Below are positions 11,410 through 17,139 of a DNA stretch of 64,000 nucleotides, piece after piece. This DNA is from Candidatus Gastranaerophilales bacterium. GTDB taxonomy: Bacteria; Cyanobacteriota; Vampirovibrionia; Gastranaerophilales; Gastranaerophilaceae. The stretch spans positions 331-64,330 of the forward strand of contig CALUVN010000001.1 of NCBI GenBank assembly GCA_944324235.1, written 5' to 3'. How positions within the stretch are numbered: the first letter of the stretch is position 1; each line of letters starts with the position of its first letter. The notes beneath the pieces are model-generated. The model was not told where the DNA came from and searched no databases. It saw only the letters and a list, made by a program, of their open reading frames with translations. A program made the translations under genes and the position numbers.

Positions 11410-12708
11410 CTAAAATTCAAACGTATCGTTTTCATTCATTTCTTCATATTCTTCAGGGGTGACGGTGTCAGGTGCTTGAGCTTCCGTTTCAAGACCGCGG
11501 CGCAGGAGGTCAGGCTGCTTTTTGATTAACTTTTTGTCTGCGGAAACTATATCCCTGTAGAGTGATGTTGTGATTAATTGAATTGTTTTTTCAGTCGGCG
11601 CTCCTTCTTCGCCTACTTTTTCCTGAACTTTATAGCTTGCCCAGTCGTCAGGAAGTTCGGATATTTTTGTATAATCCAGATTTTCTCCGAGGCGCTTGTC
11701 TATTTCGTTTTCAAGAATGTTTGTGACGTATTCCTTTTGTGATTCAAAGTGGCACGGTTCATAGATTGTTGTGCCGATAACCTCTTCAGGGTCGCGTTTT
11801 TCGTATTTTTTGAAAAGGTCTGCCGCAACTTGAAGGTGGCCGAGTTCAAATGCAAGAAACTCTTCCCATACCTGTTTCAGTTTCAAATCGGATTCGTCTT
11901 TATAGCAGTTATAGTAATTGCAGACTTCCGTAAATTCGTGAACAAGTAATTTTTCAAACTTGGATTCTGTCGGGTCTATCAAAGATTCATACATTGTAAC
12001 GTGTTCTTCTTCGACATCACAGATTTCGGCATAAGTTCTTCTCAAATCGTCGTTGCCGTACATAAATCCGTGTTCCGCATAATAATTGTGGGTTTGCTGT
12101 TCACCTGATACAAGCGTAAGGATATTAACTTTTGTCTGCGGAGAAGCTGTTTCTTTATTATATGCCTTTCTCAATCTTATTTTGTTGTCATTGTGGTGAT
12201 TCTGGGTCGGGCGGCCTATTACAACATCTGTCATTCCCTGCAAAATATCATTAGGGTTTTGGCCTTCAATCATATATTGCCACTGGCTGTACCTGTATAG
12301 GTGGTCAAAATCCTCAAGCAGCCCGAAGTTAAAAGTTTCTCTTACATAATCATCGGGTTCGTTTTGCGCAAGCCATGCGGTGAGGTCAACAGCAACCTGT
12401 TCGTAGCCGAGAGTTGTATTCAAAACGGATTGGTCTGCCGGCCCGAACCAGTTTACCGTGGTCTGCTGCATGTCTTCTAAGCGTCTGATACAGGCAAGTG
12501 TTTTTCTCAAATCCAAATCGTCGCATAATCTCGCCATACAGTGTTTGTAGCCCCATGCTTCCGTTTCTATGCCGTTCATAAGAATTTGTCTTGTTCTTGT
12601 GTAGCAGTCTACTTCTGTTTTGTTAAACGGACGCTTTACGATATCGTGCCATGTTCTGATTTGTTTTTCTATGGAAATTCCTTTTTCTTTAAGCGGATTG
12701 AAAGTCAT
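11410..12708 (-). CDS. Hypothetical protein, possible ferritin-like di-iron fold
   Basis: 432 aa. Several E..H-type ligand candidates (GIETEAW, GEQQTHNYY, DVEEEHVTMYE, FELGHLQ). No firm family assignment. Confidence 0.35.
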   Translation of the reverse strand: MTFNPLKEKGISIEKQIRTWHDIVKRPFNKTEVDCYTRTRQILMNGIETEAWGYKHCMARLCDDLDLRKTLACIRRLEDMQQTTVNWFGPADQSVLNTTLGYEQVAVDLTAWLAQNEPDDYVRETFNFGLLEDFDHLYRYSQWQYMIEGQNPNDILQGMTDVVIGRPTQNHHNDNKIRLRKAYNKETASPQTKVNILTLVSGEQQTHNYYAEHGFMYGNDDLRRTYAEICDVEEEHVTMYESLIDPTESKFEKLLVHEFTEVCNYYNCYKDESDLKLKQVWEEFLAFELGHLQVAADLFKKYEKRDPEEVIGTTIYEPCHFESQKEYVTNILENEIDKRLGENLDYTKISELPDDWASYKVQEKVGEEGAPTEKTIQLITTSLYRDIVSADKKLIKKQPDLLRRGLETEAQAPDTVTPEEYEEMNENDTFEF

Positions 12709-13198: not shown

Positions 13199-13690
13199 AT
13201 GAATTTTATAAAAGTTGAAAAAGAAGAGATTCCCGTGCTTGCAGCTCTTGCGTCAGATATCTGGCATGAATACTGGGGCATAATCCTTTCTGATGAACAG
13301 ATTGAATATATGGTCGAAAATTTTCAATCCGAAAAAGCTATGAAAAAACAGATTTCGGAGGAGAATTATTCGTACTGTTTTATTAACGATAACGGGGAAA
13401 ATATAGGCTATTTCGGCATTTCACCGAAAGACGGGTATATGTTTCTGTCCAAATTATATATAAAAAAAGAATTCCGCGGGCAGGGAACAGGGCGCAAAGC
13501 TTTTGAAGAAATTAAACGCCTGAGCGCAGAGCAGGGTTTTAATAAAATAAGGCTTACCGTAAACAAATACAACTCAAATACCATAAAAGCCTATGACCGT
13601 TGGGGGTTCAAAACTATAGATGCGGTTGTAACCGACATTGGTCAAGGCTTTGTAATGGACGATTATATTATGGAGTATTCGCTTTCTTAA
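13199..13690 (+). CDS. GNAT family N-acetyltransferase
   Basis: Acetyl-CoA motif A FRGQGTGRKAFEEI and a C-terminal AYDRWGF. Confidence 0.8.
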   Translation: MNFIKVEKEEIPVLAALASDIWHEYWGIILSDEQIEYMVENFQSEKAMKKQISEENYSYCFINDNGENIGYFGISPKDGYMFLSKLYIKKEFRGQGTGRKAFEEIKRLSAEQGFNKIRLTVNKYNSNTIKAYDRWGFKTIDAVVTDIGQGFVMDDYIMEYSLS

Positions 13691-15290
13691 AAGCTTCGAA
13701 TGCTACGGGAAGATTTTCCCGAATGTCCGGACGGATTGCCTGCGGCGGGGTTTCTAAAGGTTTTTGGTGGTTCTTTTTATATTCGGCAACCGCAATATTG
13801 AATAACGGCACCATAAACCCGAGTGCTACGGTTGAATAAGCAAGGCCTGCCATGTGTGCGACATTAAGTTTCCACATGTTTTTAAACGCAAAATCTTTAC
13901 CTTTTGCGGCAATTTCCGTATGAGATTTGAGGGTTATGTCGTTTAGCCAGTGTTTAATGCCTTTGCCTTCTTTATTTATATTGAACAGAAATTCGCGTTT
14001 TTTATCCAGAAGATTTGCCGTGCCTTTTGCTGCGAAGCCGCCGAGTACAAGCCAGTTAAGAAATCCGAAATAATCTCTTGTTACGGATTCTCTCAATTCG
14101 TTATCATTGTCTGCAGCCATGAATCTGCCTACGATTGTCGAAGTGTAGACGGTTTTTATTGCGTTTCCGCTTGATATAGGGCCGGTGAATTCCAGTTTTC
14201 TGATAAAATCTTTCGGATTTTTAATTCTCATAACCCCGATTGCCATAGCAATCATACCTGCGCTTGCTGCGAGTTTACGGAAGATAAATCCTCCGGTTTT
14301 CTTTTCTTCCTGAGTTTTTCCTGCGACAGCGTTTTCGTAGTCGACTTCTCCGACAAATTTTGTTGAGCCTGTGCGTTTTTTGGTTATCTGACGGTTAATA
14401 TACTGGTTAGTTAATCCCAGAACCGATGCCAGACTCAGCGCGCCCAAGATTTTTACTTTATTTACGGTTTTGATTTTATTCAGGGCAGATTCAATATTTA
14501 AGTTTTTATTTGTCAGAACATCTTTTCCCATATCGTATGTATCGCGGATTATATTGGAAAGAGTTGCGTTCATCTTATATTTGCCTGAAGTGACATCCAC
14601 GCTGCGGTTTACGCCCAGTGCATTTGTTACTCTGGCTTCTATCAGGCGGAAAAGGTTCTTTTTATCTTTAGAAGAGATATTATCGTTTTTGATAATTTCT
14701 GTCATCGTATCAACGATACCGTCGGAAGTTTTTAGTTTTTCGCTGATATTTTTGTAAGCCGGATTTTCCCATTTTATGTTATCCCAGCTTTTTTCGTCAA
14801 TCCAGTCGATATTTTTCCAGTTAATTTCGTTCCAGCGAGCGATTTTGCTGCCGTCGTGCCCGCTCATTCCGTTCATAACGTTGTTTACATATCCGCGTAA
14901 ACCGTCGCGGCTTTCGTCCCACGAATTTTTCAGCACCATAAGCGAATCATTGGAAAACCAGCTTTTGTTATTAATTTTTATTTCAGGATTTATATATTTA
15001 TTGGCAAGTATTCCGATAGGAATTGCCAGAAGTCCTGCAGACAGACAGTTGATAAATGTTCCGCAGATTTCGCGGAAGAAGGTTTCTGAACCTGCGTATT
15101 TGTTTCTTTTTTTTGTATCAATATAAGTTCTCGGGGCTACCATTGCGCCGACATCAAGAAGTACGGCGTTTGCCATTTCGTTTGTGTCGAGTGTGCGGAA
15201 TGTATTTGTAATAACTCCGTCCAGAGGTCCTTTAAATGTAGGTTTGTACTGTTGCTGCCGTTTTCCGTAATTTTTGACTGTTAAATCCAT
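13668..15290 (-). CDS. Orphan multi-pass membrane protein (540 aa), paralog of 15802..17139
   Basis: N-terminus is ...QQYKPTFKGPLD. It has about 5 hydrophobic segments and a large Asn/Lys/Trp-rich loop. GRFMAADNDNELRESVTRDYFGF aligns with GYFGAAKDRGKLEVQEVATRVPVI of the divergent neighbour. RBS GGAG lies upstream of ATG 15290. Confidence 0.6.
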   Translation of the reverse strand: MDLTVKNYGKRQQQYKPTFKGPLDGVITNTFRTLDTNEMANAVLLDVGAMVAPRTYIDTKKRNKYAGSETFFREICGTFINCLSAGLLAIPIGILANKYINPEIKINNKSWFSNDSLMVLKNSWDESRDGLRGYVNNVMNGMSGHDGSKIARWNEINWKNIDWIDEKSWDNIKWENPAYKNISEKLKTSDGIVDTMTEIIKNDNISSKDKKNLFRLIEARVTNALGVNRSVDVTSGKYKMNATLSNIIRDTYDMGKDVLTNKNLNIESALNKIKTVNKVKILGALSLASVLGLTNQYINRQITKKRTGSTKFVGEVDYENAVAGKTQEEKKTGGFIFRKLAASAGMIAMAIGVMRIKNPKDFIRKLEFTGPISSGNAIKTVYTSTIVGRFMAADNDNELRESVTRDYFGFLNWLVLGGFAAKGTANLLDKKREFLFNINKEGKGIKHWLNDITLKSHTEIAAKGKDFAFKNMWKLNVAHMAGLAYSTVALGFMVPLFNIAVAEYKKNHQKPLETPPQAIRPDIRENLPVAFEAFKKANTP

Positions 15291-15310
15291 GTTCTTCTGA
15301 TTTCTCCATT

Positions 15311-15339
15311 AAAAAAGTCCCGCCATGCCGGCGGGACTT
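15311..15339 (-). terminator. Leader (attenuator) terminator 20 nt upstream of the 540-aa gene start
   Basis: Minus-strand RNA reads AAGUCCCGCC-loop-GGCGGGACUU (10 bp, GC-rich) followed by a U6 run, then AAUGGAGAAAUCAGAAGAAC-AUG. Confidence 0.6.
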
Positions 15340-15379
15340 AAATTATCTTATAAACTTTTGCTGCATCAAACTTTTCTCA

Positions 15380-15472
15380 TCACACGCAAAGCTTTAAAAT
15401 AAGTCCCGTCGGAAACTTATTCGAAGAGGAGGAGGATGAGGATGAAGTTGTTAATGCGTATAATTTTTTCAT
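15380..15472 (-). CDS. Candidate leader peptide, 30 aa, with eight consecutive Ser codons
   Basis: My translation is MKKLYALTTSSSSSSSSNKFPTGLILKLCV*. SD AAAGGGA lies 6 nt upstream. Ser codons TCA TCC TCA TCC TCC TCC TCT TCG occupy 15445-15422. The ORF is below the track's length cut-off. Confidence 0.5.
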   Translation of the reverse strand: MKKLYALTTSSSSSSSSNKFPTGLILKLCV

Positions 15473-15496
15473 TAATTTCCCTTTTCTATGTTTTAT

Positions 15497-15526
15497 ATAA
15501 TACTCCAACAAAAATTTTTTTGTCAA
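15497..15526 (-). promoter_or_regulatory. Sigma70-like promoter for the Ser leader
   Basis: On the minus strand: TTGACA (15526-15521), 18-nt spacer, TATTAT (15502-15497). The predicted TSS near 15490 includes the leader SD. Confidence 0.45.
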
Positions 15527-15554
15527 TAGGTGTAGTGTATACAATTTCTATATA

Positions 15555-15581
15555 TTGACACGGGAATTTCTTTTTTATAAT
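15555..15581 (+). promoter_or_regulatory. Sigma70-like promoter for the Met leader
   Basis: TTGACA (15555-15560) and TATAAT (15576-15581). The spacer is only 15 nt, shorter than optimal. It sits back-to-back with the minus-strand promoter. Confidence 0.4.
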
Positions 15582-15635
15582 CTCTAATTAAGAAAAAAGG
15601 GAAAAAATATTTTGAATATACGTTCTTTTGAAAAA

Positions 15636-15704
15636 ATGACAGATATGATGATGGCTATGCAAATGATGATGATGTGCAAGTCAGCTTCAGTCTGCCGAAT
15701 GTGA
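15636..15704 (+). CDS. Candidate leader peptide, 22 aa, 10 Met
   Basis: My translation is MTDMMMAMQMMMMCKSASVCRM*. The SD is weak (GAAAAA). Codons 15-20 form one arm of a 15-bp helix with the terminator 5' arm. Confidence 0.4.
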   Translation: MTDMMMAMQMMMMCKSASVCRM

Positions 15705-15739
15705 TGAACATTTTTCAAAATTAACAGATTGGAGCTGAC
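15680..15739 (+). promoter_or_regulatory. Candidate antiterminator helix
   Basis: 15680-15694 gtcagcttcagtctg pairs with 15725-15739 cagattggagctgac over 15 contiguous bp (13 Watson-Crick plus 2 G-U). It competes with the 7-bp terminator stem for 15733-15739. Confidence 0.45.
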
Positions 15740-15766
15740 GGTAATTAAACGGGTCAGCTTTTTTTA
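15733..15766 (+). terminator. Leader terminator upstream of the 445-aa membrane protein gene
   Basis: agctgac (15733-15739) and gtcagct (15753-15759) form the stem, followed by T7. The heptamer gtcagct is duplicated at 15680-15686. Confidence 0.5.
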
Positions 15767-15801
15767 TGCGTGTATTACAGAATTATAAGGAAGATATTAA
15801 A

Positions 15802-17139
15802 ATGACATTTGATTATAACGTAACATTTACTGCTAAAACCCCTCACGGTGTAAATAAAATTTCAAAAGAGCTGCTGGATAATTTAACCCCTAAAAAGAGA
15901 TTTCTGGCAAAAGTTATAGATATGAAAGAAGGCGATTCCGGACTTTCACATTCGCGATTTGCTCAGGCAACGGCGACAAACTGGCTGCCTAAGGCTGTTT
16001 TTGCAAGAAGTCTGGCAGATTTGTCCGAGATAAGTTTTCTTGAAGTGTTTGAATCGGCCCTGTTTTTCTATCTGCCGTCACTGATGGGTGAATATCTTTC
16101 CAGAAGAAAAATATTTTCAAAATTTCTTCCGAAAGACCTCAGGAAAGATGTATCAAAATCCGTAGCGGAGCTTGCAAATAATCCTGCGGCAGGAAAGCTT
16201 TTGCCGGTCAAAGCAGGTATCGTGTTAAGTTGTGCGGCAATTCCTGCGGCAGAGTACGGTTTGAGTTTTGCTAAGAATTTGTTTACCCAGAAACTTTTCA
16301 ACAAAGCGGATTTCAGCAATGTTGTAAATCTTGATAAAGAGAAAAAAGAAGACCCTAAGGTGCATGAAAGAGTGGAAAAAAGTGCTGTTTCACATCTTAA
16401 AAAGGCAGGAATTGTTTCAGCCGCCGCGTTTGGTGCAAGTATAGCGCTTGCGGCAGCCGGACGTAAAAGCAGGGCGGTGCAAAAAGCCAGCGAAATTTTC
16501 CTGAATCCGGGGGCAAAAATTTACAACCTGCTTGAAAAAACAGGAGTAAAATCCAATGGGCTTAAAAATTTCTTAGACACTTATGTCAACCTTGATTTTG
16601 CGAGAAAATCGGACGGTTCTCTTGCGCTTGGCAACGGACAGCTTGCCGTAACAGTGTTATCGGGCGTCGCAGGTTATTTTGGCGCTGCAAAAGACAGAGG
16701 TAAACTTGAAGTACAAGAAGTTGCAACAAGAGTACCGGTGATTGCACTATATACAATTTTCGGGAGTACACTGTTTGACGCAGGGTTTAAAAAATTGCTC
16801 CAAAAGAACGGCAAGTACCCTGAAATTCTTTCAAAAGACTTGAATGTCGCATCACTTAACGATATCCCGAAAATTGCCAAACAAATTGCAGGCGATGACA
16901 AAAATCTTTATAAACAAAAAATTGGTGAATTATTTAAAGGCAAAGCAGTAATTGCAATGGTTCCGTTTTTGTTCAGTCTGCTGGTTGTAGGCGGGCTGCT
17001 TGCGTTGATTTCACGCCTTTGGACACAGTACAGATATAACCGCAGTATAGCAGATAAACCGCCGGTACAGCCTGCTTTCAATAACAGTTTCGGAACAGGC
17101 AGCAATATATTAATCAATCAAATCCACAAGGCCGGTTGA
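15802..17139 (+). CDS. Orphan multi-pass membrane protein (445 aa), paralog of 13668..15290
   Basis: Start moved to ATG 15802 (MTFDYNVTFTAKTP), preceded by AAGGAAG. The track start at 15766 lies inside the terminator T-run. About 6 hydrophobic segments. The C-terminal TM followed by TQYRYNRS resembles AEYKKNHQ of the paralog. Confidence 0.6.
   Translation: MTFDYNVTFTAKTPHGVNKISKELLDNLTPKKRFLAKVIDMKEGDSGLSHSRFAQATATNWLPKAVFARSLADLSEISFLEVFESALFFYLPSLMGEYLSRRKIFSKFLPKDLRKDVSKSVAELANNPAAGKLLPVKAGIVLSCAAIPAAEYGLSFAKNLFTQKLFNKADFSNVVNLDKEKKEDPKVHERVEKSAVSHLKKAGIVSAAAFGASIALAAAGRKSRAVQKASEIFLNPGAKIYNLLEKTGVKSNGLKNFLDTYVNLDFARKSDGSLALGNGQLAVTVLSGVAGYFGAAKDRGKLEVQEVATRVPVIALYTIFGSTLFDAGFKKLLQKNGKYPEILSKDLNVASLNDIPKIAKQIAGDDKNLYKQKIGELFKGKAVIAMVPFLFSLLVVGGLLALISRLWTQYRYNRSIADKPPVQPAFNNSFGTGSNILINQIHKAG

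Follow-up and report, generated by a model that had tools for sequence, protein, structure and literature searches.

Codon-run leaders resembling classical attenuators precede an unannotated superfamily of membrane proteins in Vampirovibrionia

We analysed a stretch of 64,000 nucleotides (nt) from Candidatus Gastranaerophilales bacterium (assembly GCA_944324235.1, contig CALUVN010000001.1, positions 331 to 64,330 of the forward strand; hereafter the window), in which two divergently oriented genes for membrane proteins, gene A (13668-15290, minus strand) and gene B (15802-17139, plus strand), are each preceded by a short open reading frame (ORF) in which codons for a single amino acid (serine for A, methionine for B) form a run, and then by an intrinsic terminator. 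Sequence anatomy and comparative covariation, on which the proposed steps of attenuation rest, indicate that both leaders are very probably classical ribosome-mediated transcription attenuators. The combined statement that such attenuation, induced by starvation, governs the import of serine, cysteine and methionine by the products of single genes is the account that we favour, with moderate confidence.

Distribution of the leaders

Leaders of the same kind accompany the relatives of both genes. Among the family-A loci with enough upstream DNA, 74 of 75 have a leader with a run of Ser or Cys codons, its ORF lying 140-235 nt upstream of the gene, and 37 of 38 family-B loci have one with a Met run. 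Met-run ORFs followed by terminators also precede four of the five readable distant relatives of B (about 22-30% identity), and those with leaders are high-GC Melainabacteria and Vampirovibrionales. A blind scan of about 1.4 Mb of DNA fetched from relatives for the succession of run-containing ORF, terminator and gene recovered 54 Ser leaders with A, 22 Cys leaders with A and 42 Met leaders with B; within this DNA there was not a single cross case between leader type and family, and no other convincing gene stood behind such a leader. The runs vary in length from 3 to 10 codons, and the leader ORFs retain a start codon, a reading frame and a stop whose distance from segment 2 of the RNA (described below) is fixed. 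As this architecture recurs in about 110 independent relatives, the association of leader and terminator is not a product of chance. An earlier note on this DNA, made from the sequence alone, had taken the two leaders for functional devices responding to particular amino acids; the recurrence, together with the RNA structure evidence, indicates that they are indeed real, conserved and amino-acid-specific regulatory devices.

Two further loci are recorded here as separate observations. Locus L143 has the only sampled member of the B superfamily without a recognisable Met leader: upstream of this distant gene lies an ORF with four tandem SHERLHPPN repeats (L143:2650-2830, plus strand). Locus L117 contains a third, more divergent A-like gene (L117:4300-4560, minus strand), 41% identical to A of the window and divergent to a B gene, with an interrupted Cys leader (MRYIFVKNSICCTCKFRC).

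Regulatory anatomy of the spacer

The 511 bp between A and B in the window are organised as two outward-facing units. Their -35 hexamers, TTGACA in both cases (15526-15521, minus strand; 15555-15560, plus strand), are separated by 28 bp, which confirms the back-to-back promoters described previously. The promoter of the A unit (15497-15526, minus strand; TTGACA, 18 nt, TATTAT) was recovered by a promoter scan with 11 of 12 matches, and its layout recurs in L001 and L003. A promoter-like site of the B unit (15555-15581, plus strand; TTGACA, 15 nt, TATAAT) was read from the sequence, having been missed by the scan because of its short 15-nt spacer.

The arrangement of a leader ORF and a terminator ahead of each gene, Ser-rich for A and Met-rich for B, was likewise found as the earlier note had it. 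The Ser leader ORF (15380-15472, minus strand; MKKLYALTTSSSSSSSSNKFPTGLILKLCV) has the Shine-Dalgarno (SD) sequence GGGA (15481-15478) 5 nt before its ATG at 15472, and contains eight consecutive Ser codons (15445-15422), all of them TCN. The Met leader ORF (plus strand; ..MTDMMMAMQMMMMCKSASVCRM) begins either at a TTG (15612) with AAGGGA ahead of it or at an ATG (15636) that lacks a clear SD, ends at 15704, and carries nine Met codons within ten codons (15645-15674). The intrinsic terminator of the A leader (15311-15339, minus strand) is a G+C-rich hairpin (arm 3, 15339-15330; arm 4, 15324-15315) with a T-run to 15311, and it abuts the SD of gene A (GGAG, 15304-15307, minus strand), which was read from the sequence 13 nt before the ATG at 15290; in relatives of A, GGAG stands 5-6 nt ahead of the ATG. 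The intrinsic terminator of the B leader (15731-15765, plus strand) comprises a stem at 15731-15761 and a run of seven T residues (15759-15765).

Structures that would compete with these terminators are predicted in both leaders. The full fold of the A leader consists of its terminator and a 1:2 (anti-antiterminator) hairpin (15397-15422, minus strand), in which segment 1 (15422-15412), which directly adjoins the Ser codons on their 3' side, is paired to segment 2 (15407-15397). When 15326-15421 is folded with arm 4 left out, the antiterminator of the A leader appears (15332-15408, minus strand): 15408-15386 pairs with 15361-15332 and thereby takes in terminator arm 3, with 23 bp and an energy of -28.1 kcal/mol (z -3.8). 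The antiterminator of the B leader (15680-15739, plus strand) is a 15-bp helix of -27.4 kcal/mol (z -5.35) between 15680-15694 and 15725-15739, the latter being the 5' arm of the terminator. Its 5' strand is part of the leader ORF, finishing 8 nt short of the stop codon, so that a ribosome reading through the leader would block this strand.

Conservation of the RNA structure

Across the relatives, segment 2 lies 6-13 nt past the run and shows complementarity to segment 3, the 5' arm of the terminator. For the duplexes of segments 2 and 3, the median energy lies between -11.5 and -13.6 kcal/mol and z between -2.6 and -3.7 against shuffles. Compensatory changes affect the terminator stem at eight of nine pairs in the Met class, seven of nine in the Ser class and most pairs in the Cys class. 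For the antiterminator, pairing was compared with controls in which the partner was slid by 1-3 columns: it amounts to 82.5% in Met relatives (slid, at most 46%), with 25 compensatory cells, to 90% for the core helix in 36 Ser relatives (slid, at most 57%), and to 87.4% in Cys relatives. Over all three classes, the slid controls remain at or below 63% paired, and at most 1 of 500 column shuffles reached the observed pairing. The 1:2 helix of the Ser type is paired to 83.5% in relatives versus at most 53.5% in slid controls, with compensatory changes in the window sequence, and that of the Cys type was predicted outright by RNAalifold. Segment 1 of this helix is made up of the last run codon or codons and the next two to three codons. 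The segment pairs covary between the classes, for example CGGGACUUG/AAGUCCCG in Ser leaders, UAGGAACUU/AAGUUCCUA in Cys leaders, and CAGGUGGUC/AAGCCACCU or CAGGCGGUC/GACCGCCU in Met leaders, with GUCAGCUUC/GGAGCUGAC in the B leader of the window. Ser leaders translate the motif CGGGACUUG in one of two frames, as S-G-L-G or as G-T-C, which places the constraint on the RNA and not on the peptide.

These data bear on the idea that the short ORFs are genes for functional peptides, for instance small membrane proteins or precursors of bacteriocins or of ribosomally synthesised and post-translationally modified peptides (RiPPs), with A and B as their exporters or immunity proteins. The richness of the ORFs in Ser, Cys or Met and their conserved position would suit such peptides. 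However, a terminator intervenes between each ORF and its gene, the conserved nucleotides outside the run are read in different frames, conservation tracks base-pairing, the run length is variable, no modification enzymes are encoded nearby, and the proteins encoded downstream show depletion of the cognate residue; we regard functional peptides as very improbable. The reading of the leaders as RiPPs or other bioactive peptides was rejected because the RNA is conserved independently of the frame. Even slighter is the probability that we assign to the runs acting as RNA only, be it as triplet repeats or as anti-SD-like pyrimidine tracts (CCUCC) that might, for instance, sequester an SD, with the ORFs being fortuitous. 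Both runs are purine-rich on the plus strand, the Ser run being CCUCCUCC, which might be seen as a sign of this. However, the same architecture occurs with UGU/UGC and AUG runs devoid of any anti-SD character, the ORFs keep their start, frame and stop relative to segment 2, and the U-runs of the terminators indicate that control is transcriptional.

A search of the entire 64-kb window against Rfam at the gathering threshold returned no family, the T-box and S-adenosylmethionine (SAM) riboswitches included. With permissive thresholds, the best match was to Phe_leader, at 21.5 bits against a gathering threshold of 55.

Proteins A and B and their families

The two ORFs exist as the earlier note described them. 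Gene A, of the Ser-leader clade of family A, encodes 540 amino acids. The ORF of gene B (15766-17139, plus strand) comprises 457 codons, or 445 from the ATG at 15802, which is the likely start given its better SD (AAGGAAG, 15787-15793). Hydropathy gives three strong transmembrane segments in A and four in B, with two to three weaker ones in each, in agreement with the several segments noted previously, and both are multi-pass membrane proteins, though only moderately hydrophobic. AlphaFold2 models were obtained with confidence scores (predicted local distance difference test, pLDDT) of 77.7 for A and 81.1 for B and a predicted template modelling score (pTM) of 0.75, and were rated as confident. 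The proteins contain very long helices and numerous invariant charged (Asp, Glu, Arg, Lys) and His residues; in A, about 165 amino acids make up an extramembrane domain rich in Trp. The shared N-terminal element (KPTFKGP in A, NVTFTAK in B) and the motif after the last hydrophobic helix (EYKKN in A, QYRYN in B) are present as claimed. An internal block also occurs in both, but the pattern first given for it was slightly off; the aligned motif reads G[RY]F.AA.....L(..).E..TR.

Close homologues number more than 833 for family A and more than 451 for family B; every one is either unnamed or labelled "hypothetical", and any source given is Gastranaerophilales or Melainabacteria. A genome scan yielded 80 A loci from Gastranaerophilales, including the complete genome MEL.A1, and a metagenome scan yielded 52 B loci. 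A profile of B searched against 1.84 billion representative proteins retrieved 231 clusters at 50% identity, of which the most distant named ones were again Melainabacteria or Vampirovibrionales. Sequence-profile searches of Pfam, NCBIfam and PDB placed neither A nor B in a family, and Foldseek with the two models found no fold match in PDB (best E 0.18 for A and 0.14 for B; best matches with a TM-score of at most 0.2 normalised to the query and at most 0.29 normalised to the target). The known amino-acid transporter families (APC, DAACS, NSS, SSS, LysE/RhtB, MetNIQ and others) gave no match in sequence or fold. The earlier statement that no family could be recognised therefore holds for all four of these resources.

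A and B were proposed to be paralogues, and this was borne out with profiles but not by pairwise comparison. BLASTP of A against B detects nothing (E 5), and a hidden Markov model of one against the sequence of the other is not significant (E about 0.01). With two alignments of 25 sequences each, hhalign gave 30% (P 5.5e-4), aligning exactly the C-terminal block and the terminal helix to which the earlier note had drawn attention. When the B profile was broadened with its distant relatives, hhalign reached 95.9% (E 6.3e-9) in a full-length alignment, whose 340 collinear columns join A14-520 with B4-426 and take in the N-terminal xTF[KT][GA] element; A has an insertion of about 130 residues, roughly at 105-237, relative to B. 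The order of the predicted helices and of a small beta-hairpin agrees between the two models. On these profile and model comparisons, we accept A and B as distant homologues of one superfamily, which is unannotated and has so far been found only in Vampirovibrionia. By regulation and sequence, it falls into three classes: A proteins behind Ser leaders, A proteins behind Cys leaders and B proteins behind Met leaders.

Two autonomous units

The mirrored layout had been interpreted as a functionally coupled two-gene module. This interpretation did not survive the comparison of loci, because only 3 of about 135 loci (the window, L048 and L117) have A and B side by side. Both genes run at their 3' ends into the 3' ends of convergent genes, one for a GNAT acetyltransferase and one for a carbonic anhydrase, with overlaps of 23 nt for A (13668-13690) and 30 nt for B (17110-17139), which indicates that A and B are monocistronic; these overlapping ends leave no space for separate terminators. 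That A and B together form a mirrored module integrating Ser and Met status would find some support in the adjacency at these three loci, where the two genes are divergent every time. However, so rare an adjacency speaks against it, the A partner in L048 and L117 is of the Cys type and not of the Ser type, the two sets of promoter, leader and terminator are complete and separate, and elsewhere the neighbours of A and B are unrelated and vary from locus to locus. We consider a coupled module improbable, and a conserved A-B operon was rejected for the absence of synteny. The back-to-back layout of the window is best described, from these comparisons, as an occasional juxtaposition of two autonomous units.

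Signatures of cognate amino-acid starvation

The tree of family A splits exactly into a clade of 51 members with Ser leaders and one of 22 with Cys leaders. Only five positions are strictly clade-specific between the Ser and Cys types (G48F, N81V, I386L, A393S and T456S), in the sense of at least 90% conservation inside each clade, and some genomes have one A of each type (L053 with L068, L030 with L080). The link to Ser, Cys and Met physiology proposed earlier is real in this respect, A being divided into Ser- and Cys-leader clades and B being always associated with Met.

Codon usage and composition show corresponding signatures. The Ser runs, biased to the rare codon TCC, use 62% TCC, 31% TCA and 1% AGY (99% TCN), and the A genes themselves use 4% TCC and 35% AGY. 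A sensitivity to serine limitation that is specific to TCN codons has been documented in B. subtilis (PMC3862929). Ser makes up 4.1% of Ser-type A proteins and 7.2% of Cys-type A proteins against a window background of 5.95%, and Cys makes up 0.20% of Cys-type and 0.43% of Ser-type A proteins. Close B proteins contain 0.69% Met versus 2.4% in the window background, B of the window having three internal Met among 444 residues. A bias in the cognate residue is an established property of proteins of amino-acid pathways, and depletion of this kind would be expected of proteins that are made while the amino acid in question is scarce. A literature search for data on amino-acid auxotrophy in Gastranaerophilales returned nothing useful.

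At a single locus, a distant gene of the B superfamily with a Met-run leader (L137:1098-2030, minus strand) lies divergently beside a methylenetetrahydrofolate reductase (metF-like) gene, a contextual link to methionine metabolism confined to this locus.

Mechanism and function

As we envisage it, transcription would start about 200 nt upstream of each gene, and a ribosome would translate the short leader ORF with its eight Ser codons (A) or nine Met codons (B). When the amino acid is plentiful, the ribosome would pass through the leader, either occupying segment 2 or letting it pair with segment 1, the terminator with its U-run would form just before the SD of the gene, and transcription would stop. 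When the cognate tRNA is poorly charged, the ribosome would stall in the run and segment 2 would be freed; its pairing with the 5' arm of the terminator would form the antiterminator, and RNA polymerase would enter the gene. On this account, A and B would each import serine, cysteine, methionine or a close precursor as a single component, and they would be made only during starvation for the cognate amino acid.

An import role is suggested by the combination of a lone membrane protein with no operon partner, its induction at low charging of Ser-, Cys- or Met-tRNA, and clades that track the leader; taken by itself, and derived as it is from regulatory logic, this role appears to us about evenly balanced between true and false. 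The earlier note had offered uptake, export and a stress effector as possible functions. Uptake fits the regulatory logic, but export and stress-effector roles do not suit a gene that is induced when the cognate charged tRNA is scarce and are contradicted by the direction of control.

Several points weigh against the favoured account. At most loci, an equilibrium minimum free energy fold with a ribosome mask left the terminator, the more stable local hairpin, in place. Since this mask test did not switch most leaders, the switch would have to be kinetic, as in trp, and the masked fold was replaced by the duplex, shuffle and covariation tests described above. The 1:2 helix is weak in Met-type leaders, including the B leader of the window, and the full-length fold of this last leader favours the antiterminator over the terminator even in the absence of stalling. 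An untranslated B leader may, according to the predicted folds, allow read-through by default, unlike in trp-type superattenuation, and B may rely only on the occupancy of segment 2 by the ribosome. Distant relatives of B have no depletion of Met (1.98%), the organism is known only from metagenome assemblies, and the transport role is read from regulatory logic alone. Furthermore, A and B have only three to four strongly hydrophobic segments and many invariant charged and His residues, and in the Foldseek comparison with PDB they match no transporter fold.

These last features have led us to weigh another possibility, namely that the attenuators are real and that A and B are some other starvation-induced membrane protein, such as a hydrolase or salvage enzyme, a precursor channel or a sensor. 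The hydrolase or salvage variant would be embedded in the membrane and liberate Ser, Cys or Met that is bound in conjugates or peptides. The small number of strongly hydrophobic segments would agree with this, as would the very long helices, the large Trp-rich extramembrane domain of A, the enzyme-like look that the invariant Asp, Glu, Arg, Lys and His residues lend to the proteins, and the lack of likeness to any transporter family or fold. However, a single superfamily serving three amino acids, with clades that match the leader codons, is the pattern of substrate-specific carriers, both units are monocistronic without partner genes, and neither Pfam nor NCBIfam recognises a hydrolase or cofactor motif. 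A salvage enzyme, a channel or another such function is a serious rival to import, albeit one that we think unlikely.

Other observations

In two loci (L068:6994-7125 and L080:7006-7137, plus strand), the Cys-leader A gene is closely followed by a Cys-rich ORF of 43 amino acids (MDKCSCKEPKWV.SYKYYAQNGEMKDKCKGCNESKSGCNCCCG), which may encode a small metallothionein-like protein and is followed in turn by a dxs-like gene. Elsewhere in the window (11410-12708, minus strand), a 432-amino-acid protein gives faint matches to ferritin-like, rubrerythrin and EncB-like proteins (E about 0.02) and may represent a further unannotated family.

Comparison with known systems

Stated in full, the proposal is that of a new superfamily of single-gene importers restricted to Vampirovibrionia, with a fold absent from PDB and a leader that spells out the substrate, controlled by the first attenuators with Ser or Met codons and by a leader-peptide mechanism not reported before from the cyanobacterial lineage; its chances, with all parts included, may fall a little short of even. 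The literature that we searched reports no Ser- or Met-codon attenuators, no attenuators in Melainabacteria and neither of these protein families, although absence from that literature is not proof. The leaders would extend classical attenuation to Ser and Met and to a phylum in which it had not been described before, and they yield a clear and testable prediction of what two large orphan families do; these come from a gut lineage that is common in humans and animals and has no cultured member. Should A and B prove to be carriers, they would establish both a transporter family and a fold that are new. The five positions that distinguish the Ser and Cys clades of A offer a direct handle on specificity.

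The proposed mechanism is that of a textbook three-hairpin leader-peptide attenuator and will not surprise a specialist. The leaders trpL, hisL, leuL, thrL, pheL and ilv are known from Proteobacteria, with scattered cases in Actinobacteria and Firmicutes. Like them, the leaders described here have a short, presumably translated ORF in which codons for a single amino acid stand in tandem, and an intrinsic terminator just upstream of the structural gene; mutually exclusive 1:2/3:4 or 2:3 helices are predicted, with the 1:2 helix clear in the Ser and Cys types and weak in the Met type, and the gene would be induced on starvation. They differ in the amino acids concerned (Ser, Met and Cys), in their target, which is a single orphan membrane protein and not a biosynthetic operon, and in their host, the class Vampirovibrionia of non-photosynthetic relatives of cyanobacteria. 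Unlike the classical families represented in Rfam, the window leaders reach the threshold of no Rfam leader model.

Runs of Cys codons have been described in related contexts. The upstream ORF uORFC-8-2 precedes cysS in Rhodobacterales (PMC8632094), and polycysteine leaders stand ahead of cys genes in Actinobacteria, Mycobacterium among them (PMC1262725; bioRxiv 10.1101/834739), where they have no recognisable terminator (PMC1262725). In both cases the Cys codons were proposed to sense the charging of Cys-tRNA, which matches the Cys-leader clade of A. However, those ORFs are directed at a Cys-tRNA synthetase or at cysteine biosynthesis, whereas here a full three-hairpin attenuator is predicted in front of a membrane protein of no known family.

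For serine, the closest parallel is sinR of B. subtilis, where serine limitation is read as a slowing of ribosomes on TCN but not AGY codons (PMC3862929). The Ser runs of the A leaders, with 99% TCN, resemble sinR in this preference. In contrast to the A leaders, the codons of sinR lie in the coding sequence of the regulator itself and lower its translation, and an attenuator RNA is absent.

A functional analogue of the whole arrangement is the T-box of Firmicutes, a cis-acting RNA that reads tRNA charging and switches on an amino-acid transporter by antitermination, and whose specifier reveals the substrate. As in transporters under T-box control, the charging of one tRNA would be read here by an RNA device in cis. 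Unlike in the T-box, of which none was found in the window, the sensing would be done by a ribosome on codon runs and not by direct binding of the tRNA. The leader codons might serve as a natural label of substrate specificity, by the same logic that has de-orphaned transporters through T-box specifiers.

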